DNA from: Gammaproteobacteria bacterium
GTDB taxonomy: Bacteria > Pseudomonadota > Gammaproteobacteria > Eutrophobiales > Eutrophobiaceae
NCBI GenBank assembly: GCA_040905045.1
Contig: JBBDSH010000050.1
Location: forward strand, 7,698-71,697
Direction: 5' to 3'
Length of the DNA stretch: 64,000 nucleotides
The first letter of the stretch is position 1. Each line of letters begins with the position of its first letter. Made by a program: the position numbers and the translations under genes. A model generated the notes under the pieces. The model was not told the origin of the DNA and made no database searches. It saw nothing but the letters and a program-made list of their open reading frames with translations. Of the stretch, positions 16,022 to 55,080 are shown piece by piece.

Positions 16022-16444
16022 ATGCGCCAGCGAGTCCGCAAGCGTCCCATGTCCGAAATCAACGTCGTCCCCTACATCGACGTCATGCTGGTATTGCTGG
16101 TGATCTTCATGATCACCGCGCCGCTTCTGACCCAGGGCGTCAAGGTGGAACTGCCGCGGGTGGCCTCGGAACCCATGTCGCCCAGCGACAATGAGCCGGT
16201 TATTGTCAGCGTTGACAGTACCGGAAGATATTACATCAACTTCGGCGAGGATCAGGACAGTCCCGTGGACGCGCAGACGCTGGTCAACCGCGTCGGCGCG
16301 CTGCTGAAATACCGGCCGGACATCCCCATTTACGTCAAGGGCGATGAAAACGTGCCCTACGGCCGCGTCGTCGAGGTCATGGCGCTGCTGCAGACGGCCG
16401 GCGTGCCCAATGTCGGCCTCGTCACGAAACCGCCCGAAGGCTGA
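16022..16444 (+). CDS. tolR: Tol-Pal system protein TolR
   Basis: ExbD/TolR family (INVVPYIDVMLVLLVIFM); the TGA stop at 16442..16444 lies inside the MITE terminus CTGAATAAG. Confidence 0.9.
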   Translation: MRQRVRKRPMSEINVVPYIDVMLVLLVIFMITAPLLTQGVKVELPRVASEPMSPSDNEPVIVSVDSTGRYYINFGEDQDSPVDAQTLVNRVGALLKYRPDIPIYVKGDENVPYGRVVEVMALLQTAGVPNVGLVTKPPEG

Positions 16445-16532
16445 ATAAGTGTTCCGAATTCCAGTACAGTTGCAGTCCGGGTTGAATATGGGACGGGGTC
16501 ATGGGGCATTGAAGCGACTAGCGCCAGGGACG
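16441..16532. mobile_element. left half of a MITE split by the prophage insertion
   Basis: ctgaataagtgttccgaattccagtacagttgcagtccggg...gcgactagcgccagggacg matches the left half of the intact copy at 59735..59950. Confidence 0.8.
16528..16532. repeat. 5-bp target-site duplication (GGACG), left copy
   Basis: GGACG directly precedes the prophage terminus TGTAACGCG and recurs at 54948..54952 directly after the other terminus. Confidence 0.8.
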
Positions 16533-16612
16533 TGTAACGCGCCACATGGTTTGAGATCGCAACGACAGATGGTTTGAGATCGTGCGGCGCACAAATACTA
16601 TTTACAAATAGT

Positions 16613-17053
16613 TTAAACGGTCTCTTCAGACGCCGCCAATATCTCTTGTCGCCGTGTCTCCGTCAGCAACCCGGCCTGCACCAGCAACGTCAGCCCCTCC
16701 TGGGTGTCGGGATCGTCGGCATAGACGCGGCGAGCGGTGCGTAGCATGTCGAGGTAGTCCTCGATGAGTGGCTCGGATTTGGCGGCAGTGCGAATATCGA
16801 TCCGCTCTTGGCGGGTGAAGCGGTCCAGGAAGGCTCTGGATGACCAGCTCGCCCGGGGCGCCGGCGCCGGCGGCCCGACCACCCGCAGCCCCGGGGGCGT
16901 TACGCCAGCATCGGCGATCAGTCCGTCCAGTTCCTGCCGGTTCAGTCCGATGCGTGCCAGCGTATCGTCGCCGGCGTGGTGCAGCGCGATCAGGGCGCGG
17001 TGATACTCCTCGCTCTGCAGAGTCTGCAGATGTTGTTTGCTTTCGATTTTCAT
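16613..17053 (-). CDS. hypothetical phage protein (last gene before the prophage end, downstream of the DGR RT)
   Basis: 146-aa ORF whose ATGA overlaps the RT stop; no recognisable motif. Confidence 0.4.
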   Translation of the reverse strand: MKIESKQHLQTLQSEEYHRALIALHHAGDDTLARIGLNRQELDGLIADAGVTPPGLRVVGPPAPAPRASWSSRAFLDRFTRQERIDIRTAAKSEPLIEDYLDMLRTARRVYADDPDTQEGLTLLVQAGLLTETRRQEILAASEETV

Positions 17054-18033
17054 GACGCGATCTCCAGATGACGTAACAGGTTGTGGCTGTCGGCCCAGTT
17101 GGCGTGGCCGGTCCAGGCGGCCAGGAATTTGGCCAGGGCCTCTTCATCGCCACGGGCACGCAAGGAGTTGATGGCGCGGCGTGCCCGCGTCACGCTGCTC
17201 CGGCGCAGCAGTTTGTGCTTGGGCCAGATGCGGTAGCCGAGGAAGTTGACGCCGCGGTTAACGGGCGCGAGTGTCCATTTGCTGAGTTTTAGACCGAGGC
17301 GTTCCTTGCTGACAGCTCGCATGGCGTTAAGCGTCTTTCGGAGGACGTCCGGGTCGTGGTGCAATACCACGATATCGTCCATATAGCGCGCCCAGTGTTG
17401 GTGTTTCAATTCCTGCTGCAGCAGCCGATCGATGACGCCGCCGTAAAGGTTGGCGAAGTACTGGCTGGTCAGGCTGCCGATGGGAATACCCTTTCCCTGG
17501 GCAGGCAGCATGGCATCGATGATTCTGAGCGTGCCGGCGCAGCTGATTTTCTTGCGGATCAATCCATGCAGAACCCGCCTGTCGATGCTGTAGAAGTAAC
17601 GGTGGAAATCGGTCTTGAGATAATACAGGCGCTGGTCCTGCCGCACGAGCCGGCGCATGTCGGACTGTACGGCCTTGACACCGGCGTGCGTGCCGAGGCC
17701 GGGCCGACAGGCGAAACAGCGCGGCAGGAGCATCGCCTCAATAACAGGACCGATGACATTGCACAGCGCGTGCTGCGCCACGCGGTCGCGGAACGGCAGC
17801 GCCGAGATCTGCCGGACCTTGGGTTCGGACACGAAAAACTGATGAAACGGTCCACGATAATAAGTCCCGTCGCGCAGCTCGCGGGCGAGTATCGCGAGAT
17901 TGACTTCGGCGTATTCCTTCCATTCCAGATAGCCGGCGGACTGACGCTTGCCCTTGAGCGTGCGCTCATAGGCCAGGCGCATATTGTCGTCGCTGACAAT
18001 CGTCTCGATGAGGTTGCGGTATTTCTTAGCCAT
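17050..18033 (-). CDS. diversity-generating retroelement reverse transcriptase
   Basis: 327-aa RT (BPP-1 Brt is 328 aa) with RT palm motifs and the DGR-specific IGxxxSQ signature (GIPIGSLTSQYFANLY) instead of QG. It lies 150 bp downstream of the template repeat. Confidence 0.85.
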   Translation of the reverse strand: MAKKYRNLIETIVSDDNMRLAYERTLKGKRQSAGYLEWKEYAEVNLAILARELRDGTYYRGPFHQFFVSEPKVRQISALPFRDRVAQHALCNVIGPVIEAMLLPRCFACRPGLGTHAGVKAVQSDMRRLVRQDQRLYYLKTDFHRYFYSIDRRVLHGLIRKKISCAGTLRIIDAMLPAQGKGIPIGSLTSQYFANLYGGVIDRLLQQELKHQHWARYMDDIVVLHHDPDVLRKTLNAMRAVSKERLGLKLSKWTLAPVNRGVNFLGYRIWPKHKLLRRSSVTRARRAINSLRARGDEEALAKFLAAWTGHANWADSHNLLRHLEIAS

Positions 18034-18182
18034 AATAATAAATGCCCGGCGCGGGTTTCGATGATCTACTCCCCGCTATCCGGAACCCCGCAGTGTATTC
18101 GCCGAAGCAGGTCAAGCGGGCTGACCACCACAAGGACAGCCGGCCTGCGCCGCCGTAACGGACGCAGAGCGAAATAAGGGTC

Positions 18183-18301
18183 GTCACTGCAGCCGCGCGC
18201 CCCGATGTTGCTGTTCGCGTTCGAGGGCTGATTGTTCCAGTTGGAACAGCGCGAACCGGCGATGGCGCCGTTGCTCCAGTTCCCGCCGAATAGCACGGCA
18301 T
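18183..18301 (-). repeat. DGR template repeat (TR), 119 bp
   Basis: 119-bp near-identical copy of 18758..18876. On the coding strand TR carries AAC/ATC codons (the TR frame reads NWSNGAIAGSRCSNWNNQPSNANSNIGARG) where VR has varied codons. Confidence 0.85.
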
Positions 18302-18312
18302 GCAAACCCCGC

Positions 18313-18681
18313 TCAACCTTTACGCCTCTTGCCGATCCACGTGCCCAGCATCTTTCCCGTTTCGGCCAGGTGCGTACTGGCAACCCGGTGCTGCTTCGGC
18401 GTGATGATGCGTCGCTGTGAATGGCTCATGAAGCGTAACCAGAACCGCAGATGCGCCAGTCCGGCATCCGCGGCATAAAGGCGGGAAACCTGATTCGACT
18501 TCCCGCCAACGATAAATAAATGCACCTGCTCCAGCATGGCCTGGAGGAACATGTCCCGTACGCGCCCGTGTTTGCGCGGAATGTTCTGCGCCACCGGATA
18601 CATGTAGTTAATGAATTTTTCATATTTCTCGACAATCGCCAATTGATCGACGGGCGCCCGTTCGTCCTTAACCGTCTCCAT
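18313..18681 (-). CDS. avd: DGR accessory variability determinant (Avd-like four-helix bundle protein)
   Basis: 122-aa basic protein between the target gene and TR. FIVGGKSNQVSRLYAADAGLAHLRFWLRF closely resembles the Bordetella phage Avd as recalled from memory. Confidence 0.75.
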   Translation of the reverse strand: METVKDERAPVDQLAIVEKYEKFINYMYPVAQNIPRKHGRVRDMFLQAMLEQVHLFIVGGKSNQVSRLYAADAGLAHLRFWLRFMSHSQRRIITPKQHRVASTHLAETGKMLGTWIGKRRKG

Positions 18682-18720
18682 ACTCTGCTCCTCGTTTGCG
18701 TTTCAAGTTTCATGAACGAC

Positions 18721-18740
18721 GGCAGCGCTACCGCGCTGCC
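18721..18740 (-). promoter_or_regulatory. GC-rich hairpin (8-bp stem, 4-nt loop) immediately 3' of VR/IMH
   Basis: ggcagcgc tacc gcgctgcc is a perfect inverted repeat that starts at the target-gene stop codon. It matches the DGR target-recognition hairpin described for BPP-1, and TR has no equivalent. Confidence 0.7.
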
Positions 18741-20080
18741 TATGCAAGTCTCAGGTGGTCACTGCAGCCGCGCGCCCCGATGATGCTGGCCGCGTTCGAG
18801 GGCTGACTGGTCCAGACGGAACAGCGCGAACCGGCGACGGCGCCGGCGCTCCAGTTCCCGCCGAATCGCACGGCATTGTCGACCTCGTAAGTCTCACCGC
18901 GGCCGCCGGTGATGTCTTCCCACGTGCCCGCCGCGGCGTCGGGATTGCTGCCGCCGAACTCCGAGCCCCAGATCCACATACACGCCGTCGCCTGGATCAC
19001 ACCCCAGCGCGAGGTGAACGCCTCATCGCCGTTGTTGCTGCCGCTGTTGGTGGTCGCGATCCCGGTCGTGACGGGATCGTTGCCGCGATCGACTTCCTCG
19101 CTGGTGCCGTAGGCCAGCGCGGCGAACTCCTGGTAGGACGGCGGGCGCTTGCCGTGCGCGGCCAGCACCTCGGTCAGATTCCACCAATTCGCGGCAGCGT
19201 AGACGCTGGTGCCGTTGCCGCCGAATGCGTCCGGGATCTTCGGCGCGTTGCTGTTATCCGCGATCGTCACACCGTGCGCCGATGTGCCGTTGATATGGTG
19301 ATCGACGCCGAGCAGGTAGATATCGGCCCAGAAATTCCCGGCGACCAGCGTCATGCCTCGCGGATCATCACAGGCCGGGCGCCATTTCAAATCCCAAAGT
19401 GAATACTCGTTGATCTGCGCCGTCGTGTTACCGCCCGCTTGTGCGCCGGCGTTGGAGCCCGGCGCGTAGTGGAAGCCACCGATACGGCGTGCATTGGCCA
19501 CTGGCGGCGAGGTGTAACTGCTGGTTGCCTCCAGCGTGCCATCCGGGTGAATCCAGATCACGTAATCCGTGCCTGCACTCGGCGAGCCGGGCATCGTGAT
19601 CGAGGTGCTGGCCGCGATCTCGTACACCGTGCCGTTGACCTCGATGGTCAGCGCCTGCGATGTCTCGGCGGTGAAGTTACCGGTCTTGGTCCAGGCGACG
19701 GTGGTGGGATCGGATTTGGCGAAGAGGGCGGCGGGCAGTTCGCCGCCCGACGTAAATTCACTCCAGGATCCGGCAGTAAACTGATACCGCTTATCCTCGT
19801 CCTCGACGTACGCCCACCACCCATTATTGGGCGCGTAGTATTTCCACGCGCCGGCAACGCGCACGGCCACTTGGTTCTCGTTGGCGTCGCCCACCGGCAC
19901 GATGTAGCGAACGCCGTCGTTCGGCGTGCCGGGCAGGCTGGTGGTGCGCGACTTCACGCTGAGCTGGACGATGGCGCCCAGGCCGATCAGGTTCTCGTCG
20001 TTTTCCGTGTGCCAGCCGTTGAAGCCGAGACCCCAGGCGTATTTGATCCAGTTCAATATAGGGTGCGTGCTTGGTGCCAT
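18740..20080 (-). CDS. DGR target protein: Mtd-like tail fiber/receptor-binding protein with C-terminal C-type-lectin-fold variable region
   Basis: The C-terminal ~40 aa (FGGNWSAGAVAGSRCSVWTSQPSNAASIIGARGCSD) are encoded by VR. The gene follows the truncated J-like tail-tip gene. Confidence 0.8.
   Translation of the reverse strand: MAPSTHPILNWIKYAWGLGFNGWHTENDENLIGLGAIVQLSVKSRTTSLPGTPNDGVRYIVPVGDANENQVAVRVAGAWKYYAPNNGWWAYVEDEDKRYQFTAGSWSEFTSGGELPAALFAKSDPTTVAWTKTGNFTAETSQALTIEVNGTVYEIAASTSITMPGSPSAGTDYVIWIHPDGTLEATSSYTSPPVANARRIGGFHYAPGSNAGAQAGGNTTAQINEYSLWDLKWRPACDDPRGMTLVAGNFWADIYLLGVDHHINGTSAHGVTIADNSNAPKIPDAFGGNGTSVYAAANWWNLTEVLAAHGKRPPSYQEFAALAYGTSEEVDRGNDPVTTGIATTNSGSNNGDEAFTSRWGVIQATACMWIWGSEFGGSNPDAAAGTWEDITGGRGETYEVDNAVRFGGNWSAGAVAGSRCSVWTSQPSNAASIIGARGCSDHLRLA
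18758..18876 (-). repeat. DGR variable repeat (VR), 119 bp, at the 3' end of the target gene
   Basis: Differs from TR at 11 positions; 10 of these are TR coding-strand adenines (AAC->GCC/GTC/ACC/AGC/ATC, ATC->GTC). The eleventh is a non-adenine difference at the 5' edge. Confidence 0.85.
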
Positions 20081-22290
20081 CAGGCGAGCCCTCCGTAATC
20101 GTTACCGTAATGCCGGCCGTAACCGGCCAGGCGAATTTCCTCGCGGCGCTGCTGTTGCCAGTTGGTGTAGCCGTCGCGCAGCGCGTCGATCTCCCAGGTG
20201 ATGTGACCCAGCGCGGCGCCGTCGTTGAGTTCCTTCGCCTCGTCGTAGATGTATTCGTCGCCGGTCAGCCCGGTGACCAGGCGGCGCGATGTGCCGGTCT
20301 CGCCGTCGCGGATGCGCACGTTGTACGTGGTGCCGGCTTCCGGGCCGATGGGGCCGGCGTCCTGATCGATCAGCTCCGCCGTCTGCAGCGTGCGGTCGCG
20401 GTGCGCCCAGTTCAGCGTCGGCACGCCGCTGACTTCCTCCGGCCAGTCTTCGCCGTTCACCCGGATCTGGCCGGGCGGGTACGGCCGGATGAAGCGCGAG
20501 TCGAAAGTAATGTTGTCCGTCGGCGCGCTGGCCACATCCAGCCGTCCTAAAGAAGTAGACGGCAACACGCGCACGTTCGCCGTCTCGCTGTCGACAAATT
20601 CCGTCGTCGGTGTGGCCTCGAAGTTCTGGCCGAAGAAGATCCGCGCGCCGCTGCTGTGCGCGTTTGGCACGGTATCAATGACGCCGCGATTCACCGTCAG
20701 CGTGCCGGCGCCGATGTCGATATCGGTGACCTCGACGATCTCGCCGTCCAGGTACGCCCACGTGCCTGCCTCGACGAGATCCAGATCTTCCGTTGCCGTG
20801 CTGTTGTCGATGGGCAGCACGGTCTGCTGAGGCGTAATGTCATCGGTGATCGTTGTGGTCGGCGCGAAGTTGCCGGGCGGGCCGATGCGCTCGTAGACGC
20901 CGCCGACGTTTTCCATCACAAGAAAGTTAAACGCGTCGCTGCTCGGCCGCACGGCGTTCACCACCAGAAAGCCGCTGGATTCGTCGATGCCATCGAGCAC
21001 GGCATCGGAGTCCGCCACTTCGCGCGCCACCTGGTAGTACGTCGCCTCGGTGAGCAGCCGGAACGGCGCCGGCGCCGGCGTGCTGCGCGGGTCGATCCAG
21101 TCCGTCGGTGTCGGATCGGCGAACTCGGAATCGACCAGCGAGAACACATCCTGCACCGCGTTCACGGTGATGGCGCGATCGGTGAGCGTGCCGTAATTGA
21201 CCTTGGCGATCCGGATCACCATTGAGGTGATCCCGTATTCCGGCCAGCTGAATAGATACACATCGCCCGGCCGGATAGCGTCCTGATCGGACGTGAGCCG
21301 CAGCTTCATCTGTGCCAGCGGCGCGGAGAGCTGGCGCAGGTCGCGGGAACAGACGCGGTTCGCCAGCGCGCCCTTGGTGATGCCGGTGTAGCGATGCGTG
21401 CGGTTGATCACCTGGCCGCCCTGGATCTGCAGCGCCGCGAGATTCTGGATCGTGACGGATCGTTCCTTCCAGGTGGGCTCGTCGTCCTCTCCGTCGATGT
21501 AGGTGACGGTCATTTCGTTCACCAACTCGCCCCAGCCGGGTACCTTGTAATCCAGCACCTCGATGATGTTGGTGTTGTCCAGCGTCTGGAGATTGCCGAC
21601 GGTGTAATCGTCCCGCGCCAGCTTCAGAGACCACAGGCCCGTGGTCGGATCTTCGTAGAGCGAGGCATCGATGTGCTGCAGCACGGATTGAATGAAGCCC
21701 TCGATATCGAGATTCTCATCCGTCCACAGGAAAGAGAGGCCGAAGCCCTCGCTGGCCAGCGTCGATCGCGCGGCGTTGAAGGCATCGACATCGACGCGCG
21801 ACTCGCTGTAGCCCATGCCCCAGTCCTTGCTGGTGATCAGCTCATAGAGAATATGCGCCGGGTTCGCATCATTTCCGATCAGTCCGCTGCCGGCGCCGCT
21901 CCATCCATTCGGCGTGCGCCGGCCGGTCGCCGCCCAGTTCTTGAAACGCGGTATATTGCCCAGATAAGGGCGCTTTAAAACGGCCGCAACAATACCTCGA
22001 AAGGCCGGGATCGCCGCGCCCAGTTGCGAGACCAGGTAACTGTTCGCGGTCTGCGCTTCGCCGCCCATCTCGATATCCACATCGCCGGACACGCCGCCCT
22101 CGCGATCCTCGCCGCCGAACAGTTCTTCCTCGTCGATGCTGATGGTGCCGCCGCTGGTCTCGCCCTGCCAGGCGACGCGATCGCCGACGCGGATCTCGGT
22201 GATGTTGTCGATGGGTCCACGGCACCAGGCCAGATGCATGCCGACGTAATACTTATACCCGACCGTGATCTCCTGACTCTTACCGCCCAT
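20080..22290 (-). CDS. phage tail tip / host-specificity protein J-like (N-terminal Phage-tail_3-type portion only)
   Basis: 736 aa; it resembles the lambda J N-terminal/central region (e.g. NPAHILYELITSKDWGMGYSESRVDVDAFNAA) but lacks the J C-terminal receptor-binding part. Confidence 0.55.
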   Translation of the reverse strand: MGGKSQEITVGYKYYVGMHLAWCRGPIDNITEIRVGDRVAWQGETSGGTISIDEEELFGGEDREGGVSGDVDIEMGGEAQTANSYLVSQLGAAIPAFRGIVAAVLKRPYLGNIPRFKNWAATGRRTPNGWSGAGSGLIGNDANPAHILYELITSKDWGMGYSESRVDVDAFNAARSTLASEGFGLSFLWTDENLDIEGFIQSVLQHIDASLYEDPTTGLWSLKLARDDYTVGNLQTLDNTNIIEVLDYKVPGWGELVNEMTVTYIDGEDDEPTWKERSVTIQNLAALQIQGGQVINRTHRYTGITKGALANRVCSRDLRQLSAPLAQMKLRLTSDQDAIRPGDVYLFSWPEYGITSMVIRIAKVNYGTLTDRAITVNAVQDVFSLVDSEFADPTPTDWIDPRSTPAPAPFRLLTEATYYQVAREVADSDAVLDGIDESSGFLVVNAVRPSSDAFNFLVMENVGGVYERIGPPGNFAPTTTITDDITPQQTVLPIDNSTATEDLDLVEAGTWAYLDGEIVEVTDIDIGAGTLTVNRGVIDTVPNAHSSGARIFFGQNFEATPTTEFVDSETANVRVLPSTSLGRLDVASAPTDNITFDSRFIRPYPPGQIRVNGEDWPEEVSGVPTLNWAHRDRTLQTAELIDQDAGPIGPEAGTTYNVRIRDGETGTSRRLVTGLTGDEYIYDEAKELNDGAALGHITWEIDALRDGYTNWQQQRREEIRLAGYGRHYGNDYGGLA

Positions 22291-22474
22291 CGTGTTCCTC
22301 CCGCGCGGCGTCCACCACCTTCATGGCCATCGGATCGCCGGTCGCGATCAGCGCCTCGGCCTCGATGCCGTTACGCACGAAGCCGCGCCAGTCCAGATCG
22401 TGACGGGCAAACCAGCGCCGCGCGCCGCGCGCGCAATGATGCGCCTGGCGCAAATGGCGGACGTGGACCTTCAC
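22280..22474 (-). CDS. small hypothetical phage tail-module protein
   Basis: 64-aa ORF filling the gap between the 79-aa and J-like ORFs, with ATGA-type overlaps on both sides. Confidence 0.3.
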   Translation of the reverse strand: MKVHVRHLRQAHHCARGARRWFARHDLDWRGFVRNGIEAEALIATGDPMAMKVVDAAREEHDGR

Positions 22475-22710
22475 TTCTTGCCTCCCTTACTCTTGATCGG
22501 CACCGTGCGCAGGTCGCCGTACCAGATCACATTGGGCGCCTTCATTTGCCGGCGGCCGAACAACACCGGGATCGGCTTGCCTTCCTCGGCGGTCGGCACG
22601 TCCAGCTCGCCCAGCTTGGCCGGCTCCGGAATATTCTGCCCGGCGCCCGGCCGCAGGAACGCGCTGATCGCGAAGCTGACGACGAGGAATGCAATCTGCC
22701 ACCACACCAT
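22471..22710 (-). CDS. small membrane-anchored phage tail protein
   Basis: 79 aa with an N-terminal TM helix, translationally coupled to the L-like gene. Confidence 0.4.
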   Translation of the reverse strand: MVWWQIAFLVVSFAISAFLRPGAGQNIPEPAKLGELDVPTAEEGKPIPVLFGRRQMKAPNVIWYGDLRTVPIKSKGGKK

Positions 22711-22712
22711 GA

Positions 22713-23462
22713 TCAGAACACCGGATCGGAGCCGAAGGGATTGATGCGCGGTATAAACGGCATGCCGCCGTAGTTCACCACGTTGTCGAACTTGTCGATG
22801 CAGGTCTGCCTGTCGTGCGCGCAGCCAGCGAAAGCGGCGACGTCCTCACCGACCTCGGAATCGATCAGCGGCGAGGACAGCGTGATGGTGTCGCCGGCGT
22901 GATCGACGATGGCGCGCCGCTGGTTGCCGTACTCCACATAGCCGGCGATAAACCAGCCGTCCTCCTTCGTATCGAACTCCGCCGCCGAGAGCGTCAGATC
23001 CGTGCGCGCCGTCAACGTCGCCAGCACACGGAAGTCGTTGCGCACCACCTTGCAGTTGTCGTCGTAGAGCGCGTGCCGGCAGAGTTTCTGATAACGCGCG
23101 TGCAGGCCGGTGCGCTTCATGGAACTGAAAATCGGCTCGCACTGCAGGACCACCTCCGAGCCGGACCAGGCCGCCGTCAACACCCGGCCGGTCCAGATCA
23201 CCACCGTCGCCTCATCGTCCTGCTGGAAGATATCCAGCTCCATCACGGTGGCCGGCGCGCCGCCGACGAACAGCGCGGCCACGCCGGCGTCGCGCGGCAG
23301 CCGCACGCTGATCCGGGCGCGGGCGATTTCCTCGGTGTGTTCGATCTCGTTGCGGCGCACGTAGATGGGATCGTAGTCCTGGCCGTCGTGCGTTACCTTG
23401 CTTGGCGATGTCGTGTAACCGAACACCAGGCCTGCGACGACGAATCGGTACAGCTCGATCAT
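22713..23462 (-). CDS. minor tail protein L-like
   Basis: 249 aa whose C-terminal cysteine cluster CAHDRQTCIDKFDNVVNYGGMPFIP resembles the lambda gpL C-terminus. Confidence 0.5.
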   Translation of the reverse strand: MIELYRFVVAGLVFGYTTSPSKVTHDGQDYDPIYVRRNEIEHTEEIARARISVRLPRDAGVAALFVGGAPATVMELDIFQQDDEATVVIWTGRVLTAAWSGSEVVLQCEPIFSSMKRTGLHARYQKLCRHALYDDNCKVVRNDFRVLATLTARTDLTLSAAEFDTKEDGWFIAGYVEYGNQRRAIVDHAGDTITLSSPLIDSEVGEDVAAFAGCAHDRQTCIDKFDNVVNYGGMPFIPRINPFGSDPVF

Positions 23463-30286: not shown

Positions 30287-30297
30287 GATCGCTTACC

Positions 30298-46472: not shown

Positions 46473-46723
46473 TGGCCGTCTACGTGGACAACGCACAGAT
46501 CCCGTTTCGGCGCATGAAGATGTGCCACATGATTGCCGACAGCCTGGACGAATTGCACAGGATGGCGGAGCGGATCGGGCTGAGACGTCGGTGGTTTCAG
46601 GATGGCGGCAGCTTCCCGCACTATGACGTCTGCCTCACTAAACGCGACATGGCCATCAGCTATGGCGCCGTTCCGGTCGAGCGCAGGGAGCTGGTCAGGA
46701 TCATGCGGGAGCTGCGTGCATGA
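46472..46723 (+). CDS. DUF4031-family protein
   Basis: MAVYVDNAQIPFRRMKMCHMIADSLDELHRMAERIGLRRRWFQ. Confidence 0.5.
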   Translation: MAVYVDNAQIPFRRMKMCHMIADSLDELHRMAERIGLRRRWFQDGGSFPHYDVCLTKRDMAISYGAVPVERRELVRIMRELRA

Positions 46724-47298
46724 ATATCAGCTGCCCCAACTGCGCGCTCACCTTTCCCTTGATCGCCGGCGTCAACGACGCCGACGCGCGCAAGTTCGCG
46801 GCCGTTATGGGTGAGCTGCCGTCGCCGGTTACGCGCCCGTTAATCGAATATTTACAGCTCTTTAAACCGCCTAAATCCGGCCTGCGCTGGAAGAAGATGC
46901 TGTCCGTCACCTGCGACATCGCCGGGGAAATCATCGCCGGCGAGATCCGTTACGACCGGCGCACGCTGCCGGCCGGCGTCGAGCAGTGGGCGGCCGGCAT
47001 GCAGGACATGGCCGAGCGCCGCGACAAGCTGTCGCTGCCGCTCACCAGCAACGGCTACCTGCGCAAGATCGTCTTCGGCCTGGCGGACAAGGCCCAGGGC
47101 GAGGCCGAGCGCGAACGCGAGGAACGGGTGCGCAGCGGCCGCCGGACGGAGAATACGACGCCGGCGCCGGACCGCAGCGCGATCAACAACGAGATCCGAT
47201 CGCTGCAGCGGCTGCTGGAACACGCGCCGAACGCCGCGCGGCCGTCGCTGGAAAAGCAGATCGCCGAACTGAAAACACGACTGGGGGAGGTGGACTGA
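46720..47298 (+). CDS. hypothetical phage protein with an N-terminal CxxC
   Basis: 192 aa, MNISCPNCALTF. Confidence 0.35.
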   Translation: MNISCPNCALTFPLIAGVNDADARKFAAVMGELPSPVTRPLIEYLQLFKPPKSGLRWKKMLSVTCDIAGEIIAGEIRYDRRTLPAGVEQWAAGMQDMAERRDKLSLPLTSNGYLRKIVFGLADKAQGEAEREREERVRSGRRTENTTPAPDRSAINNEIRSLQRLLEHAPNAARPSLEKQIAELKTRLGEVD

Positions 47299-47486
47299 TG
47301 TATTCCTTTTACACGGATATCCACGAGGGCGCGAGGCGCCTCACTATCCGGGTCCGTCGCGGCTGGCTGTATCGCCTTCTGACCGGCCAGGAAGAAACCA
47401 CCGTCGCGGAGATTTATCTGCCCCGCAAAGACTGTTTTGCGTTATCCAACGCGCTCCATAAACTCGGCGACAAGAGGGTGGCATGA
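47298..47486 (+). CDS. small hypothetical phage protein
   Basis: 62 aa from ATG 47298 (MYSFYTDIHEG). Confidence 0.25.
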   Translation: MYSFYTDIHEGARRLTIRVRRGWLYRLLTGQEETTVAEIYLPRKDCFALSNALHKLGDKRVA

Positions 47487-47884
47487 TCGCTGTTACGGAA
47501 ATCGACGACGATCTGCTGCCGGACTCTTTGAAACCGATTGCGGATCTCATCGGCCTGCCGGCGACCATCAGCCTGGTGGAATCCTACGGCGGCGTGCGGA
47601 TATATATCCCGCGGAGTCCCGGTGAGGATCACCCGCTGGTGCAGCGCATCGGCCTCGAGGCCGCCGAGTCACTGGCGCGGATCTACGACGGTGAGCCGGT
47701 GGAATTACCGATGGCCTCGGCCGCGCTGCGCGACGCTCGCGACAGGGAACTTCTGCGCCGTGCCGATGAGGGCTGCAGCATCAATGCACTGGCGCAGGAG
47801 TTCGGCCTGTCCCGCCGCCAGGTCTTCCGCATCCTGTCACGACTTCGTCGCCTGAACCCGGGTGACGCGCGTCACCCTGATTAA
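47483..47884 (+). CDS. mor: Mor-family transcriptional activator (middle/late operon regulator)
   Basis: C-terminal HTH NALAQEFGLSRRQVFRILSR and a Mor-like N-terminus. Confidence 0.65.
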   Translation: MIAVTEIDDDLLPDSLKPIADLIGLPATISLVESYGGVRIYIPRSPGEDHPLVQRIGLEAAESLARIYDGEPVELPMASAALRDARDRELLRRADEGCSINALAQEFGLSRRQVFRILSRLRRLNPGDARHPD

Positions 47885-47912
47885 TTTTCCCCCGGGCGTC
47901 TATCGTGGCGCC

Positions 47913-48494
47913 ATGTCCAGTCAAACATTCGATCGACTCGCCGCACCCTGGATCCTGCGCAGGGATGTGGAGGGCGGTTTCTCCGACCATCGTAACGATC
48001 GCGGCGGCGCCACGAATTTCGGTATCTCCATTCATTTGATGGAGTTGCTGCCGGACGGCAACGACGACGGCTATCTCGACGGTGACATCAACAAGGACGG
48101 CGTCATTGATATCGAGGACATTCACGCCCTGGACGACGATCGCGCCCTGGATATTTACTACCGTTATTTCTGGCGGCCGAACCGCTGCGAGGATCTGCCG
48201 CCGGCCGTCGGCCTGTGTCTCTTCGACGGCCTGGTCAATCACCAGCCGAACCCCGCGCGCCGTTTGCTGCAGGAAGGTCTGGAGGTGTTGGCCGACGGCA
48301 AGGTCGGCCCGATCACGATCGGCGCCGCGCACAAGATCAGTCCGGACTACTTCCTGCCGAACTACCTTTCCCACCGCGCGCGGTTCTACACCGACATCGT
48401 CCGTGCGGATACATCGCAGTCCACGTTCCTGCGCGGCTGGTTAAAGCGGATGTTCCTGCTGCAGCAATTCATTATGAAGGAGATCAAACCATGA
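47913..48494 (+). CDS. endolysin (GH108 N-terminal domain plus peptidoglycan-binding domain) with an EF-hand-like insertion
   Basis: EGGFSDHRNDRGGATNFGIS matches the GH108 motif; it contains the loop DGDINKDGVIDIED. Confidence 0.65.
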   Translation: MSSQTFDRLAAPWILRRDVEGGFSDHRNDRGGATNFGISIHLMELLPDGNDDGYLDGDINKDGVIDIEDIHALDDDRALDIYYRYFWRPNRCEDLPPAVGLCLFDGLVNHQPNPARRLLQEGLEVLADGKVGPITIGAAHKISPDYFLPNYLSHRARFYTDIVRADTSQSTFLRGWLKRMFLLQQFIMKEIKP

Positions 48495-48925
48495 GAGTCA
48501 TTTTATCCATTGTATTTGTCGCGTTGCTGGCCGGTTGCAGCACTTACGCCGGCAAAAGCAAGCTGCGCGATCATGCGAACCTCGAAGATTATAACCCGCA
48601 GAATTTCCAGGGATGCACCGTCGGCCAGTACAAAATCCCGGATATTGCGACCCGCGAAACGGGCGACACTGATAATAAGGGGCTGGCTCCCGGCGCCACG
48701 ATCACCTGGTGGGATTGCAAAGACAAGGCACACGTCAGCGGCAAGATGGATTTGACGGGTGACGGTAAGCCGGACTTTGAATACAGGGCCGACGATGTGG
48801 ACGGCTCAACAGCCGCCAAGATACGCGCCGATCTCGAAGCGCGGTTTGCCGAGGCCGGCGTGGAAGGCGCCGGCAAGGCAGCCTGTCTCGCGATGGCCAG
48901 CATGGGCATTCCGTGTAGAGACTGA
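48491..48925 (+). CDS. lysis-cassette lipoprotein (o-spanin or unimolecular spanin candidate)
   Basis: Signal peptide plus lipobox LLAGCS; it overlaps the endolysin stop by 4 bp. Confidence 0.45.
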   Translation: MRVILSIVFVALLAGCSTYAGKSKLRDHANLEDYNPQNFQGCTVGQYKIPDIATRETGDTDNKGLAPGATITWWDCKDKAHVSGKMDLTGDGKPDFEYRADDVDGSTAAKIRADLEARFAEAGVEGAGKAACLAMASMGIPCRD

Positions 48926-48928
48926 TCT

Positions 48929-49300
48929 GTGCCGGAAACCCGCGACGGCCTCGCCTGCCCGCAATCGTTCCTCGACGCGCCGGATGAACTCCGGCGCCAG
49001 GTGTGTAACGGCTGCGGGTCGGCGCAGGCGAAGTTCGATTTCATTCCGGACACGGTCTGGTTTCTGCCGATCCGGAAAGCCTGCGACATTCATGACTGGA
49101 TGTACGCACAAGGCCGGGACATCGAGGACAAACGCCAGGCCGATCGCGTGTTCCTCAACAACATGCTGCGGCTGGTCGAACGCGAGCGCGGCATCGTCGG
49201 CCGGCTGCTGAAACCGCTGCGCCGCCGGCGGGCGCTGAAGTATTACGAGGCGGTGAACGCCTTCGGCGGGCCGGCCTTCTGGTCGGGCAAGAATGGATGA
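48929..49300 (+). CDS. hypothetical phage protein in the lysis region
   Basis: 123 aa with a GTG start. Confidence 0.3.
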   Translation: MPETRDGLACPQSFLDAPDELRRQVCNGCGSAQAKFDFIPDTVWFLPIRKACDIHDWMYAQGRDIEDKRQADRVFLNNMLRLVERERGIVGRLLKPLRRRRALKYYEAVNAFGGPAFWSGKNG

Positions 49301-49502
49301 AGCCGATCACGCGCAGCGCTGGGAAGAACGGGAGCGCGCATTATCACTGGGCGCGGTGCTCGGCGCCGCGACCGAAGAGCACGTCATCATCGACGGAGAG
49401 GTAGTCTGTATGGACTGTAGTACGCCGCTGCCGCAAGAGCGTTTGAAAGCACACCCGCGTGCACTACGGTGCGTGCCGTGTCAACAGAACCGGGAGGCCT
49501 GA
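49293..49502 (+). CDS. TraR/DksA-family C4 zinc-finger protein
   Basis: CMDCSTPLPQERLKAHPRALRCVPCQ. Confidence 0.6.
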   Translation: MDEADHAQRWEERERALSLGAVLGAATEEHVIIDGEVVCMDCSTPLPQERLKAHPRALRCVPCQQNREA

Positions 49503-49867
49503 TGCTGGAAGCTGACCTTAACAACATGATCGAGATCGCCAAATTTTTTTGGATGATCACCATCTCCATCGCCTCCGCCGGCGCCTGGATCTACGCCTGG
49601 TTGAGTCAGAAGCGGTCGGCGACGCTGGATCGCGTCGAGGCCTCCGAGCGCCTGCTGAATGAAATGGCGCATCGGCTGACCTCGCTGGAAAAGGACGTGA
49701 TGCACGGCCCGACGCACAACGACATCCAGGAGCTGCACGGCCGCATCACCGATTTACAGAGCAGCCTCGATAGATTGATCGGCGGTATCGACGCCTGGGG
49801 CGATACCTACAAGGCCATGAACGAGCAGCTGATCAATATCAACAGTTACCTGCGGGAGCACAAGTAA
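49502..49867 (+). CDS. membrane protein with coiled-coil (DUF2730-like; holin or i-spanin candidate)
   Basis: Start is probably ATG 49502; it has a TM helix (FFWMITISIASAGAWIYAWL) followed by a coiled-coil. Confidence 0.4.
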   Translation: MLEADLNNMIEIAKFFWMITISIASAGAWIYAWLSQKRSATLDRVEASERLLNEMAHRLTSLEKDVMHGPTHNDIQELHGRITDLQSSLDRLIGGIDAWGDTYKAMNEQLININSYLREHK

Positions 49868-49869
49868 TC

Positions 49870-50166
49870 GTGCCCTACAACGAGCACATCGCCAGGGCGC
49901 GCCGTCTCCGGCTGCTGCGCATACTCCACGAGGCGGACGGCTACCGGCTGAACGATATCATGCTCGGCAAGCTGCTGGACAATTACGGCTATAACGTCAG
50001 CAACGATCAGCTGCGCACTGACGCCGCCTGGCTGTCCGAACAAGGGCTCGTCACGGTGCAGGATTTCGACGATGTGCAGCTCATCAGTCTTACGCAACGC
50101 GGCGCCGACGTCGCGGCCGGAAAGATCACCACGCCTGGCGTCGACCGGCCCGCACCGGGGCGGTAA
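49870..50166 (+). CDS. hypothetical phage protein upstream of the terminase genes
   Basis: 98 aa with a GTG start. Confidence 0.3.
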   Translation: MPYNEHIARARRLRLLRILHEADGYRLNDIMLGKLLDNYGYNVSNDQLRTDAAWLSEQGLVTVQDFDDVQLISLTQRGADVAAGKITTPGVDRPAPGR

Positions 50167-50168
50167 CG

Positions 50169-50696
50169 ATGCCGAAAGCCTCCAGCGTCACGCAACTCGA
50201 TCCTGCGATCCGTGAAGCGGTGAATCGCGCGATACGTGAGGAACGCGCCACCATCGATCAGATCGTCGCGCTCATCGAAGACATGGGCGGCGAGGCCTCT
50301 CGATCGGCGGTCGGCCGTTACAAGAAAAACGCCGAGGAGCAGATGGAAATATACCGCGAGGCGCAGGAAGTCGCCAAGGTCTGGATCGGCAAACTGGAAG
50401 AGGATCCGGAAAGCGACATCGGCCGGTTGCTCTCGGACTTGTTGCGCACCGTCGCCTACCAGACGATGGGCACGATGAAGGGGGGTAAAGCCAAACCGGC
50501 CGAGGTGATGTACCTCGCTAAGGCACTGAAAGAAGTCGCCAGCGCCGACAAGATCAGCACCGAGCGCGAGCTGAAGATCCGCCAGGAGGTGGCGAAGAAG
50601 GCGGCGGATAAGGCGGAGACCGTCGGCCGGCAGATGGGGCTGTCCGCAGATCAGCAAACCAATCTGAAAAAAGAATTGTTGGGGATCGTCGGGTGA
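50169..50696 (+). CDS. DUF3486-family protein (Mu gp27-like small terminase subunit)
   Basis: 175 aa, basic N-terminus, immediately upstream of the large terminase gene. Confidence 0.55.
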   Translation: MPKASSVTQLDPAIREAVNRAIREERATIDQIVALIEDMGGEASRSAVGRYKKNAEEQMEIYREAQEVAKVWIGKLEEDPESDIGRLLSDLLRTVAYQTMGTMKGGKAKPAEVMYLAKALKEVASADKISTERELKIRQEVAKKAADKAETVGRQMGLSADQQTNLKKELLGIVG

Positions 50697-52306
50697 GTAC
50701 GCTCGAAGCCGGATTGCTACTGGAGTATCAGAAGCGGTGGGTCGCCGACGACTCGCCGCTAAAGGTATCCGAGAAAGGTCGGCGAACGGGCATTACCTGG
50801 GCGGAGGCTGCCGACGATGTATTGATCGCGGCGACCGACCGCGCGCACGGGGGGCTGAATGTCTATTACTTCCCGCAAGCGCACGATGATTCCATTGAAT
50901 ACATCGAGGCTTGCGCGCGCTGGGCGCAGGCATTCGGCCACGCCATCGAGGAACAGGCATGGGAAGGCACATGGGAGGATGAACTCGGTGTCGTCCTGCC
51001 CGGCGACGATCCCGACAAGCACATCCAGACCTACAAGATCCGCTTCGCCAGCGGTAACCGTATCGTTGCACTCTCATCCGCGCCCAGCCGCGCGCGCGGC
51101 AAGCAGGGCATTTTCGTGCTCGACGAGGCGGCATTCCATCCGAACATGCCCGGCGTGCTCAAAGCTGTCATGGCCGCGCTTCTGCGCGGCGGCAAGGTGC
51201 GCGTGATCTCGACGCACAACGGCGAGGACAACCCGTTTAATGAGCTGCTCTCCGAGATCCGCGCCGGCCGGCGCAAGGGCACCGTGCATCGCTATCCGTT
51301 CAAGCTCGCCGTCGAACAGGGTATGTATAAACGGATCTGTGAAATGGAGATGGCGCGCCGGGAAAAGGCCGGGCTCGATCCCGTCGAGGCGCAATGGTCA
51401 CAAGAGAAAGAAGATAAATACGTCGCCGATGCGTATGCGTTCTACGGCGATGATGCCGAGGAAGAGCTGGACGCGGTACCGAAGTCCGGTACCGGCACGT
51501 TCCTCTCCGGCGCGCTGATCGAGGCGCGCATGAAGGCCGCGCCCGTTCTGCGGCTGCAGTACGATGATGCGTTCGCCCATAAGCCGGAACGTGTTCGCTG
51601 GAGTGAGTGCCAGGCCTGGATCGAGGATCACCTGGCACCGTTGATCAATACGCTCGATGAAAATCTTGAGCACTGCCTCGGCGGTGACTTCGGTCGTACC
51701 GGTGATCTGTCCGTGTTCGGTCCGCTGGAAATAGGCCGTGACCTGGTGCGTCGTTGCCCGTTCCTGGTCGAACTGCGCAATGTGCCATTTGCTCAGCAAG
51801 AGCAGATCCTCTGGTACATCCTCGATCACCTGCCACGGTTGCGCGCGGCGGCACTGGATGCGCGCGGGATCGGTCACCACCTCAGTGAATTGACCTGGCA
51901 GCGGTATGGCGTGTCGCGCGTGGAGCCGGTGATGCTCTCTGTGGAATGGTATCGCGAGAACATGCCTGCATTCAGAACGGCGTTTGAGGACGCGGAGATT
52001 GAAGTGCCGAAGGACGCCGACGTGCTCAAGGATCTGCGCTCCATCAAAATGGACAAGGGCGTCGCGAAGATCCCGGACAATTACAAGGGCACCGGCACCG
52101 ACGGTAAACCCCGCCACGGCGACGCGGCGGTCTGCCTGTTCCTCGGTCACTATGCCAGCCGCATGGAAGTCGCGCCAATCGATTATCAGTCCACCGGCGT
52201 ACGCCGCATGGGCGAGATTGCAGACGGCGCACCGCCGGGTCGCCGCCGCCTGGACGACGTCGGCTTCGGCGCCGTCGCCGGCCGCAATGATTTCGGAGGC
52301 TATTAA
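50693..52306 (+). CDS. terminase large subunit (Mu gp28-like)
   Basis: 537 aa with ATPase and nuclease halves, positioned between DUF3486 and the portal. Confidence 0.7.
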   Translation: MSTLEAGLLLEYQKRWVADDSPLKVSEKGRRTGITWAEAADDVLIAATDRAHGGLNVYYFPQAHDDSIEYIEACARWAQAFGHAIEEQAWEGTWEDELGVVLPGDDPDKHIQTYKIRFASGNRIVALSSAPSRARGKQGIFVLDEAAFHPNMPGVLKAVMAALLRGGKVRVISTHNGEDNPFNELLSEIRAGRRKGTVHRYPFKLAVEQGMYKRICEMEMARREKAGLDPVEAQWSQEKEDKYVADAYAFYGDDAEEELDAVPKSGTGTFLSGALIEARMKAAPVLRLQYDDAFAHKPERVRWSECQAWIEDHLAPLINTLDENLEHCLGGDFGRTGDLSVFGPLEIGRDLVRRCPFLVELRNVPFAQQEQILWYILDHLPRLRAAALDARGIGHHLSELTWQRYGVSRVEPVMLSVEWYRENMPAFRTAFEDAEIEVPKDADVLKDLRSIKMDKGVAKIPDNYKGTGTDGKPRHGDAAVCLFLGHYASRMEVAPIDYQSTGVRRMGEIADGAPPGRRRLDDVGFGAVAGRNDFGGY

Positions 52307-53844
52307 TGGCCACGTATATACAGACTAAAGGTGGTTTAATCGTCCCGGAAAGTTTCGCTGAGCCGGTACCGCAAGAGCGGCCCGGCCGCCCGGACATGAA
52401 CGAGGTCGCCACCACGCGCGATGGTCGCGATATCACGCGCGGCTACGTCGATCCCATGATGCTATTGCAGCCGCAGGATTCCGTTCTGCGTCTGCGCGGC
52501 AATATCAATTATCAGATTTACAAGGAAGTGCTGCGTGACGATCAGGTCAAGACGGCGTTTGAACAGCGCCAGCGTGCCGTCGTCGCGCGCGAATGGGAAG
52601 TGATGCCCGGCGGCGATCGGCCCATCGATCAGGAAGCGGCCGACTACGCACGCGAGCAGCTGAAGGCGCTCAACTTCGACGCCGCTACCGACAAGATGCT
52701 GTACGGTATTTTCTACGGTTACGGTGTGGCGGAGATACTATGGGCGCGGGACGGCAATCGCGTCATCATTGATCAGGTCCGCGTGCGCGATCGCTCCCGC
52801 TTCGCCTTCGACGGCGCCATGCGTTTGCGCCTGAAAACCATGAGCAATCCCATGCCGGGCGAGGAAGTGCCGGACCGCAAGTTCTGGCACTTCGCCAACG
52901 GCGCCGACCACGATGACGAGCCTTACGGTCTCGGCCTCGCGCACTGGTTATATTGGCCGGTGTTCTTCAAACGCGGCGGCATCCGGTTATGGATGACGTT
53001 CCTGGATAAGTTCGGCGCGCCGACGGTCAAAGGCGAGTATCCGCCCAACGCCACGCCGGCGGAAAAGACGAAACTGCTGAACGCACTGGAAGCCGTAAGC
53101 AGTGAGTCCGGCGTGATCATTCCGGAAGGCATGGCCATCGAATTACTGGAAGCGGCGCGCACCGGATCGGCGTCGTATGAAAAGATGTACGATCGCATGG
53201 ACAAGGCCATCGCGAAAGTTATCATCGGCCAGGTGGGATCGACGGAAGGCACGCCCGGCCAGCTCGGCGATCAGGAATCTCAGAGCGATGTCCGTGCCGA
53301 CCTGGTCAAGGCCGACGCGGATATCATCTGCAGCTCGTTTAATCGCACGGTGCTGCGCTGGCTGACCGAGTTTAATTTCCCCGGCGCCATGCCGCCTCAG
53401 GTCTGGCGCAAGATGGAAGAAGAAGAGAATCTTACTTCCATCGCCGAGCGTGACAAAACGCTGTCCGATATCGGATTCCGGCCCACCGAGGATCGCGTCC
53501 GCGATGTTTATGGGGACGGCTACGAATACGCGCCGCCGCAGACACCGCCGAGCCTGCCGCCGCAGTTCGCCGAACCGGCCCGGCGTGACAGCACTGATGA
53601 TGTCGATCAGATCGATGACGAGGCGGACAAGCTGGCCGAGGACTGGGAGCGCACGCTCGGCCGTCGAGTGAATGACATTATTGCGATGGCCGAGGACACC
53701 AACGACTTGCAAACATTCCGCGAACGCCTGCGCGAACTCGCCGCCGCCGAACCGGATGACCAGGTTGTCGAGCAGTTCCGCCGTCTTGGATTCATCGGCC
53801 GCTTGTGGGGACGCTGGCGTGCCGGACGCGGCCGTGACGAATGA
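52306..53844 (+). CDS. portal protein (DUF935, Mu gp29-like)
   Basis: 512 aa at the typical position between the terminase and the MuF-like gene. Confidence 0.7.
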   Translation: MATYIQTKGGLIVPESFAEPVPQERPGRPDMNEVATTRDGRDITRGYVDPMMLLQPQDSVLRLRGNINYQIYKEVLRDDQVKTAFEQRQRAVVAREWEVMPGGDRPIDQEAADYAREQLKALNFDAATDKMLYGIFYGYGVAEILWARDGNRVIIDQVRVRDRSRFAFDGAMRLRLKTMSNPMPGEEVPDRKFWHFANGADHDDEPYGLGLAHWLYWPVFFKRGGIRLWMTFLDKFGAPTVKGEYPPNATPAEKTKLLNALEAVSSESGVIIPEGMAIELLEAARTGSASYEKMYDRMDKAIAKVIIGQVGSTEGTPGQLGDQESQSDVRADLVKADADIICSSFNRTVLRWLTEFNFPGAMPPQVWRKMEEEENLTSIAERDKTLSDIGFRPTEDRVRDVYGDGYEYAPPQTPPSLPPQFAEPARRDSTDDVDQIDDEADKLAEDWERTLGRRVNDIIAMAEDTNDLQTFRERLRELAAAEPDDQVVEQFRRLGFIGRLWGRWRAGRGRDE

Positions 53845-54668
53845 CGGTATCGATCCGGTTCGATTTGCCGCCCGAACGGGCGCTCGAGTTTTTTCAGAAG
53901 AAGGGACTGGCGACATCGTTTGCCTGGCAGGACCTGCTTCACCAGGAACACGAGGCCGCGTTCACCGTCGCCAAGATGATGGACATGGATCTGCTTTCCG
54001 ATGTGCGCGACGCCGTGGAGCGTGCCATCACGGACGGTATCAGCTTCGAGGATTTCCGCGCCGAGCTGGAACCGACGCTGGCCGATCGTGGCTGGTGGGG
54101 AAGAAAGGAGATGACCGACCCGCAGACTGGCCAGGTCCGCGAGGTCCAGCTCGGATCGCCGCGCCGGTTGCGCACCATCTATCAGACGAACCTGCGCACG
54201 GCCTATGCCGCCGGCCACTGGGATCGCATTGTGGACACCGCCGAGGAAGCGCCGTTCCTCTTATACGATGCTGTCCTCGACGAACGCACGCGGCCGGAGC
54301 ACGCCGAATGGGATGGCACATTGTTGCGCTACGACGATCCCTGGTGGGAAGATCATTACCCGCCGAACGGCTGGAATTGCCGCTGCTCGGTGGTCCAGCT
54401 CGACGCCGATCAGGCGCAGGCCATCCTCGGTAAATCCGCGCCGGATACGCCGCCCAGCGACCCGGCGCGTGAATGGGTGAACCCGCGTACGGGCGAGGTG
54501 CAGCAGGTACCGCGAGGCATCGATCCGGGATGGAACTATCATCCCGGACGCGCGCGCACAGCAAAGCTGAGGCAGGATTTTACGGACAAGGTGCGCGGTG
54601 CCGGCACAATCGGCGCCAGCGCTGCAGCGGCACTGGAACGCGCCCTGGATAATTTGAATTTACAGTGA
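53841..54668 (+). CDS. MuF-like head morphogenesis protein (gp30/F)
   Basis: Phage_Mu_F-like C-terminal half (HAEWDGTLLRYDDPWWEDHYPPNGWNCRCSV). Confidence 0.7.
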   Translation: MTVSIRFDLPPERALEFFQKKGLATSFAWQDLLHQEHEAAFTVAKMMDMDLLSDVRDAVERAITDGISFEDFRAELEPTLADRGWWGRKEMTDPQTGQVREVQLGSPRRLRTIYQTNLRTAYAAGHWDRIVDTAEEAPFLLYDAVLDERTRPEHAEWDGTLLRYDDPWWEDHYPPNGWNCRCSVVQLDADQAQAILGKSAPDTPPSDPAREWVNPRTGEVQQVPRGIDPGWNYHPGRARTAKLRQDFTDKVRGAGTIGASAAAALERALDNLNLQ

Positions 54669-54947
54669 TATCAGGACGTTACAGCGAAGATCGATCTTTC
54701 GCACTTCAGGATCGATCTTCCAGTTGAAAGTGCGATCCCTGATCGTTGATAATTCAGCGACTTACAGAATTATGAGATCGCAATCCATCTGTCGCTATGA
54801 TCGATGTTCGGAGAAACCATGTGGCGAAGATCGATCTTCCGGAATTTTTGCGCGCCGCTTATAACCATTTGAAACCTGTTTATTTATCCCGTTATATCCC
54901 ATTTAATCCCGCGCGATCCCGGATCTCAATCCATCTGTCCGATCACA

Positions 54948-54952
54948 GGACG
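54948..54952. repeat. 5-bp target-site duplication (GGACG), right copy
   Basis: Directly follows the prophage terminus ...GATCACA. Confidence 0.8.
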
Positions 54953-55080
54953 AGCGCGGGACCGAGCCAGGGATGGCTCGGGGAGCGGAAATGCCCCATG
55001 ACCCTGCCCTTTTCCCCGGTCAATTTCCCATTCTCAATACTTCAGCGACAACCGTACTGGAGTTCGGAACATCCATTCAG
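54948..55080. mobile_element. right half of the MITE split by the prophage
   Basis: ggacgagcgcgggaccgagccagg...ccgtactggagttcggaacatccattcag matches the right half of the intact copy at 59735..59950 and ends 22 bp before the tolA ATG. Confidence 0.8.

Follow-up and report, generated by a model that had tools for sequence, protein, structure and literature searches.

The 64-kb stretch of DNA analysed here, referred to below as the window, carries a transposable prophage inserted between two genes of a tol locus. The host genes tolQ (15324-16019) and tolR (16022-16444) lie on the plus strand, tolR being directly upstream of the insertion, and were recognized by the Pfam families MotA_ExbB (1.9e-42) and ExbD (1.3e-30). 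On the other side, also on the plus strand, are tolA (55103-56035; TolA, 4.2e-11) and tolB (56040-57353; TolB_N, 1.2e-27), giving the gene order tolQ, tolR, prophage, tolA, tolB. The inserted DNA extends from 16533 to 54947 and comprises 38,415 bp, of which about 35 nt (41427-41461) are a probable assembly artefact. It starts with TGT and ends with ACA, and is bordered by two copies of the pentamer GGACG, at 16528-16532 and 54948-54952. Since the bases outside the two copies differ, the target-site duplication is exactly 5 bp long. An earlier sequence-only reading of the window had placed the insertion between tolR and tolA at single-nucleotide resolution, with TG…CA termini and a 5-bp duplication, and all of this was borne out, as both boundaries could be read to the base.

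The left tip, from 16533 onwards, reads TGTAACGCGCCACATGGTTTGAGATCG (also quoted as TGTAACGCG…), and the right tip, up to 54947, reads GGATCTCAATCCATCTGTCCGATCACA (also quoted as …CCGATCACA). As inverted repeats, the termini agree in 18 of 27 positions. The 16-nt motif CASATGGWTTGMGATC was found in four exact copies in the window, only at the prophage tips and all facing inward, two on the plus strand (16543-58 and 16566-81) and two on the minus strand (54776-91 and 54922-37). With up to two mismatches allowed there were five matches against 0.23 expected, a count that none of 100 shuffled sequences reached; the fifth match, with two mismatches, belongs to host DNA at 4514-4529. The sequence-only reading had likewise seen repeated inward-facing motifs, counting "two to three" at the right end, which is accounted for by a half-copy at 54810-25. 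In the left terminus (16533-16582, plus strand) the putative transposase sites are packed, at 11-26 and 34-49 nt from the tip, and in the right terminus (54669-54947, minus strand) they are spaced, at 11-26, 123-138 (the half-site) and 157-172 nt. The first arrangement recalls the packed pattern of Mu attR, and the second the spaced pattern of Mu attL; by this analogy the left end would resemble attR and the right end attL. The right end also has a non-coding region, 54686-54839, with three to four copies of a GATC-containing palindrome, GAAGATCGATCTTC. Three of the five matches to this palindrome in the window fall in the right end, with 0.28 expected for the whole window, and a role as pac, as a regulator site or in methylation control are possibilities. 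Similar repeats, CGATCCGG, were observed at 35560-35690, and the phage encodes a Dam-family methylase.

The flanking DNA is a single miniature inverted-repeat transposable element (MITE) cut in two by the insertion. Its left half occupies 16441-16532, the last five bases being the left GGACG (16528-16532), and its right half, together with the right GGACG at 54948-52, occupies 54948-55080. Joining 16441-16532 to 54953-55080 in silico, a check that had been proposed with the sequence-only reading, gave a 220-nt element that aligned from end to end with the intact copy (59735-59950), the reference for the uninterrupted element. The alignment had no gap across the junction; at this place the intact copy has GGATG. 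The 23-nt terminal repeat of the element was found in the window only in these copies (0 expected), and folding of the rebuilt element gave a single long hairpin (-60.2 kcal/mol, z = -8.05) with the insertion point in the apical loop. It is thus a short, non-coding and hairpin-forming element with terminal inverted repeats, present in two copies in the window, as expected of a MITE. Repeated elements are the type of target used by some integrases, and a site-specific recombinase directed at the MITE, with GGACG as a short att core, was considered as another route of entry. However, the intact MITE has a different pentamer at that point, no integrase or recombinase family was matched among the annotated prophage open reading frames (ORFs), and the TG…CA tips, the inward-facing sites, the MuA/MuB gene pair described below and the 5-bp duplication together are the signature of DDE transposition, so that entry by a recombinase is hardly credible.

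The genes of the prophage are arranged in two arms, which diverge from a control region at 36761-36853. The control region contains a promoter-like site at 36789-36817 (TTGACT, 17 nt, TATCAT) enclosing a perfect palindrome, GTGCCCAATTGGGCAC, at 36796-36811, a putative operator. On the minus strand lies a c-like helix-turn-helix (HTH) repressor of 121-140 amino acids (36395-36817; phrog_8, phrog_4), whose likely start is the ATG at 36760. The plus-strand arm begins with a Ner-like regulator of 69 amino acids (36854-37063; HTH_35, 3.3e-11), and a gene of the same 69 amino acids precedes MuA in relatives of the phage. An extra HTH protein of 278 amino acids (37060-37896; HTH_19, HTH_3) is placed between Ner and MuA. 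The transposition genes occupy 38229-41221, with a MuA-family transposase at 38229-40406 (Mu-transpos_C, PF09299, 5.3e-12; rve, PF00665, 7.8e-8) and an adjoining MuB-like AAA+ ATPase at about 40433-41221 (AAA_22, 2e-16; TniB, 2e-7). HTH_Tnp_Mu_1 remained just under the cut-off here and is present in relatives.

The block of semi-essential, middle and lysis genes, 44070-50696, follows on the same strand. It contains Gam (44070-44603), the Dam-family methylase (45517-46023), GemA (46020-46472), Mor (47483-47884), an endolysin (47862-48494), DUF2730 (49502-49867) and gp27, the small terminase formerly named DUF3486 (50169-50696). The arm is completed by the large terminase (50693-52306), the Mu-type portal (Portal_Mu/DUF935, 52306-53844) and, closest to the right end, MuF (53841-54668). 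Marker genes of transposable phages, i.e., Mor/C, GemA, Gam, the Mu-type portal, F and gp27, were thus all present; mom and gin were not found in the prophage. A perfect 24-nt tandem duplication of 2.1 copies was observed in the early region at 45295-45344.

The minus-strand arm starts with the repressor and, on the same strand, an outer-membrane β-barrel gene of the Opacity/Ail type (35717-36355; OMP_b-brl, 1e-15). Placed between the repressor and a strong terminator (35457-35436), it is likely a moron for lysogenic conversion. Past the terminator comes the head assembly block (32629-35465), for which matches across the head genes included phrog_1005 (1.5e-91), phrog_976 (4.3e-119) and Pfam families. 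Its first gene is an I-like protease/scaffold, from 34140 to about 35300; the ORF is open up to 35465, and the position of the terminator places the true start further down than that. A cement or scaffold-like protein (33727-34137) and the major capsid protein (32629-33684) follow. A tRNA-Met (CAT) was found by ARAGORN at 32158-32233, minus strand, inside the head-connector operon. The connector and tail module, 20080-31894, comprises gp36-like (31475-31894) and G-like (Phage_tail_S, 30966-31478) genes, a tail terminator (30539-30973), the major tail protein (29522-30286), a tail chaperone (29049-29522), the tape measure (26816-28921), tail structural proteins (25102-26816), tail assembly proteins (22280-25264) and a tail tip protein (20080-22290). 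Neither sheath nor baseplate genes were found in this module, and judged by their profile matches the tail genes are of the long non-contractile type. Profile matches agreed with each gene that the sequence-only reading had named, i.e., MuA-like and MuB-like, Ner, Mor, GemA, Gam, DUF3486, terminase, DUF935 portal, MuF, I-like protease, gp36-like and G-like genes. Its label "Mu-like" held for the transposition, regulation and head modules, but not for the tail genes or the gene order. The two-arm layout, the non-contractile tail module, the β-barrel moron, the Dam methylase and the tRNA-Met had escaped that reading.

The left end of the prophage is taken up, over its last 3.5 kb and on the minus strand, by a complete diversity-generating retroelement (DGR) of the BPP-1 type, which the sequence-only reading had overlooked. 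The target is an Mtd-like tail-fibre or receptor-binding protein (18740-20080; mtd_2nd and DUF2793), 52% identical to Mtd of Bordetella phage BPP-1 over residues 114-445 and carrying the variable repeat (VR, 18754-18876) at its C-terminus. It is followed by the accessory protein Avd (18313-18681; bAvd, 1.6e-32; phrog_3206), the template repeat (TR, 18179-18301), the DGR reverse transcriptase (17050-18033; phrog_1423, 1.7e-110; RVT_1, 2.6e-16) and a protein of 146 amino acids whose gene overlaps the end of the reverse transcriptase gene (16613-17053; phrog_25252, 1.5e-9). TR and VR form a direct repeat of 123 nt with 90% identity. Ten of the 12 differences between them fall on TR adenines, and the remaining two are at the repeat edges. 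A reverse transcriptase of the DGR clade, an adenine-biased TR/VR pair with VR at the 3' end of the target, and Avd with an Mtd-type target were thus found together. VR was identical in the two assemblies that were compared, the window and the Logan assembly described below. An ORF at 18066-18383 with a match to "tail protein" was discarded, being merely the translated TR and no gene.

In NCBI the transposase is recorded on a 129-kb contig of "MAG: Gammaproteobacteria bacterium", a metagenome-assembled genome (MAG). An independent Logan assembly of run SRR27977661 was available for comparison. Its 8.1-kb contig is 100% identical to 15863-23998 and crosses the left junction into tolR and tolQ, and a 20.9-kb contig is identical to 34007-54977, except for one stretch, and spans both the centre and the right junction, reaching 30 nt into the MITE. 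The exception is a 35-nt stretch with a run of 22 cytosines (41427-41461), present in the window and absent from the Logan assembly, the one place where the assemblies differ. In the window it breaks an early ORF of 109 amino acids, which is intact in Logan, and it is probably an assembly artefact of the MAG contig. The possibility that the C22 tract acts as a phase-variation switch was rejected on the same grounds. Apart from this ORF, all prophage ORFs are open.

There were two immediate observations from the gene order. Firstly, the minus-strand genes run from 36817 down to 16613 and the plus-strand genes from 36854 up to 54668, which leaves 21.7 kb between the transposase and one tip and 16.7 kb between it and the other. 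Secondly, MuF and the protease gene are on different arms: the right tip is reached by terminase, portal and MuF, and the left tip by the series protease, capsid, connector, tail and DGR, which starts at the centre. Such an order could have arisen by a private inversion of a colinear Mu-like prophage after its insertion, or by a mis-join in the contig, all the more as the window comes from a MAG and as colinear order prevails among cultured MuA-type phages, HS6 and YPCBV-1 among them. However, the second assembly spans the centre at 100% identity, and the same divergent junction of protease, repressor and MuA was found in relatives from JGI, ENA and Logan assemblies (L003/L004, L005 and L012-14; MuA 55-57% identical) and in 11 IMG/VR loci (MuA 41-45% identical). 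All in all, about 15 uncultured relatives have the split layout, and relatives terminate right past MuF or MuF-G. With a junction common to that many independent relatives, an assembly error and a private inversion are both very improbable, and the split layout is a trait of the lineage.

The ends of the relatives were followed where contigs allowed. Three contigs of one relative (L125-127) stop or diverge at …TTCACA, some 480 nt past MuF-G; contigs that break off exactly at the phage tip are an indirect hint of transpositional replication with variable host DNA at the virion ends. Two loci from one metagenome, L140 (~7430) and L142 (~9595), are 94% identical and lose similarity about 170 nt past MuF (…TTTCTGTCAGAAAA); by their sequence they run into different flanks, as would be expected for one phage type at two insertion sites. 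In a prophage of an isolate genome, IMG/VR 637000208_000001, the right arm ends with MuF-G; its tips and duplication are not visible, as the contig is trimmed at gene boundaries. The closest relative is a 38.7-kb JGI contig, Ga0502761_0001696, whose MuF did not appear in the best 120 matches of a MuF search. A search of IMG/VR with the protease alone returned no relatives. Colinear Mu order was seen in other relatives (L007-L011, L015, L136 and L146) and in phages HS6 and YPCBV-1. The split layout was absent among the best 25 of 28 isolated-phage records with DNA that matched this transposase, and no description of it was found in a full-text literature search, which did not reach the Saltoviridae proposal paper. 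The layout is therefore common in metagenomes and was not found in isolated phages or in the searchable literature. A short element, perhaps a satellite or remnant, was noticed in L016 (8000-16100) and L017; it has MuA, MuB, GemA, Mor, tape-measure-like and G-like genes and no recognisable head genes, and in L016 it adjoins a tyrosine integrase.

At the host locus, 38 kb of prophage now separates tolA from tolQR, which raises the question of how tolA is expressed. Three sigma-70-like promoter matches, by consensus only and with 0.6 expected, face outward to tolA on the plus strand of the right end (54724-54801), and might relieve polarity on this gene. The tolA gene itself carries a 42-nt tandem repeat of 3.8 copies (55486-55644), which encodes a Glu/Lys-rich stretch. 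Elsewhere in the host DNA, purine-rich short repeats of the GGAGTGA type were noticed at 6125-6173 and 9889-9937, 3.8 kb apart.

Taken together, we consider the element to be an apparently intact temperate phage that integrates by MuA/MuB-type DDE transposition and presumably replicates in the same way, and from the sequence we give this reading a probability of about 0.88. That the insertion is recent and the phage intact is suggested by the open ORFs, the perfect duplication and the four exact end sites. An element that arrived by transposition may also have become a fixed, non-inducible remnant, kept for its moron genes or not yet decayed. This would agree with the single copy at a single site in the only sample that holds the phage, and with the poly-C stretch breaking one early ORF in the window. 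Against it, the Logan assembly lacks that stretch and has the ORF intact; no other ORF is interrupted, those of MuA, MuB, terminase, portal and capsid included; the duplication and end sites are perfect; and TR and VR differ only in the manner typical of DGRs. We therefore regard a remnant as improbable.

Several results weigh against an intact, transposing phage with the ends and layout described here. No empty site was found: a TolR scan of 185,579 species genomes gave a best match of 68% identity, since the host is a MAG without close relatives, and the exact 35-nt pattern of the empty site had no matches in JGI metagenomes. Exact-protein look-ups for a second insertion site of the same phage gave only SRR27977661, with the same site. 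The window holds at least one likely assembly error. In a rough neighbour-joining tree of MuA, to which we give little weight, the split-layout phages fall in two groups and are not strictly monophyletic. Finally, the assignment of attL and attR and the idea of a gyrase site, discussed below, rest on analogy with Mu biology.

The sequence shows how the phage went in: its transposase cleaved the DNA at the TG…CA tips and transferred these to nicks staggered by 5 bp in the apical loop of the palindromic MITE, which left the GGACG duplication. The HTH repressor and Ner probably act on the 94-bp central control region that holds GTGCCCAATTGGGCAC. Early transcription would proceed rightward through Ner, the transposase, the ATPase and the early genes (Gam, Dam and GemA) as far as Mor, whose product would then turn on the genes that follow, from lysis through small and large terminase and portal to MuF. 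In the leftward arm, where repressor, outer-membrane moron and terminator precede protease/scaffold, capsid, connector, the predicted non-contractile tail and the BPP-1-type DGR, Mor would also activate a separate promoter past the terminator at 35457-35436 for the head, tail and DGR genes. Packaging would be initiated at one tip and would include host DNA. By adenine-specific mutagenic retrohoming, the DGR would rewrite the last 40 or so codons of the gene for the Mtd-like receptor-binding protein, and so vary the receptor-binding tip.

The layout may be understood as the order of Mu with the whole block from c to F flipped between attL and the boundary of G and I. This reading is drawn by analogy, because the left sites are packed like those of attR and the right sites spaced like those of attL. 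Mu has a strong gyrase site between G and I, at the centre of its genome. In the present phage the genome centre is at 35,740, a few hundred bases at most from the intergenic region (about 35300-35716) that precedes the protease gene, and a flip of this kind would keep that region central, in the place of the Mu gyrase site. It would also bring the transposase and the control region to the genome centre and the packaging genes into the early-side arm. Tentatively, and with the odds in our opinion somewhat against it, the phage may belong to a widespread undescribed lineage with MuA-type transposases and non-contractile tails, in which the half from c to MuF is flipped relative to Mu, with an Mtd-type DGR in this member. 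If so, it would represent a third basic layout of transposable phages, beside Mu/D3112 and B3/BcepMu, and a natural test of how far the transposase enhancer may lie from the ends. The layout is of possible interest for the classification of transposable phages and for the geometry of ends, enhancer and gyrase site in Mu transposition. The locus is in any case a clean example of prophage boundaries fixed to the base by sequence alone, in the tol operon of an uncultured gammaproteobacterium.

Compared with known systems, the prophage has much in common with Mu and the colinear MuA-type phages, such as Pseudoalteromonas HS6, Rhodobacter RC1 and Ralstonia RS138. They share MuA, a MuB-like ATPase, Ner, Gam, GemA, Mor, gp27, terminase, the Mu portal, F, G, an I-like protease and gp36, as well as TG…CA ends, repeated end sites, the 5-bp duplication and a genome size near 38 kb. 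Of the phages in the collection, HS6 came closest in MuA, with 36.5% identity. In the colinear phages, however, the transposase is found 1-5 kb inside one end and is followed by the late genes, all on one strand, while here it is central. The tail of Mu is contractile and the predicted tail here is non-contractile; mom and gin were not found, and a Dam-family methylase and a DGR are present. With two divergent arms, a terminal MuF and no sheath or baseplate genes, the phage departs from the architecture of Mu at the level of the genus Muvirus.

Two arms diverging from central regulators are, as here, characteristic of phages of the B3/BcepMu type, and such an arrangement is reported for B3 and Leptospira prophages in section 2.5 of PMC8705779. 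In BcepMu the short arm consists of early genes only, from Mor to the transposase, and lysis genes, terminase, portal, F, G, protease, capsid and tail are together on the other arm. In the present phage, unlike BcepMu, lysis genes, terminase, portal and MuF travel with the early arm and the arm boundary falls between MuF and the protease. Moreover, the transposase of BcepMu is of the Tn552 type and here it is of the MuA type. With lysis and packaging genes on the arm of a MuA-type transposase, the architecture is thus not that of B3/BcepMu either.

The DGR has its own counterparts. Chromohalobacter phage YPCBV-1 (OP380511), a cultured gammaproteobacterial Mu-like phage, has a DGR in the order target, Avd and reverse transcriptase, which like the present one comes last at the tail-fibre end, and its protease is the closest match among isolated phages (48%). 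Unlike the present phage, it has its genes in the colinear Mu order, a sheath and baseplate for a contractile tail, and a DGR target of the SUMF1 rather than the Mtd type. Hankyphage and other prophages of gut bacteria, for which the literature search returned PMC6199706 and PMC12135933, pair replicative transposition with a DGR. The Hankyphage-type prophages infect unrelated hosts (Bacteroides, Firmicutes), and such phages were not among the phage-collection matches to MuA, the protease or the Mtd-like protein; no direct comparison was run. The likeness to BPP-1 extends to the cassette order (mtd/VR, avd, TR, brt), the adenine-specific differences and a G+C-rich stretch at the 3' end of VR. 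BPP-1 is short-tailed and non-transposing, whereas here the DGR is at the terminus of a transposable phage with a tail that is predicted to be long and non-contractile. The phage thereby adds an Mtd-type DGR to the set of DGR-carrying transposable phages. Nothing in it changes the view of how such phages work, and it is an ordinary kind of transposable phage without a close cultured relative.

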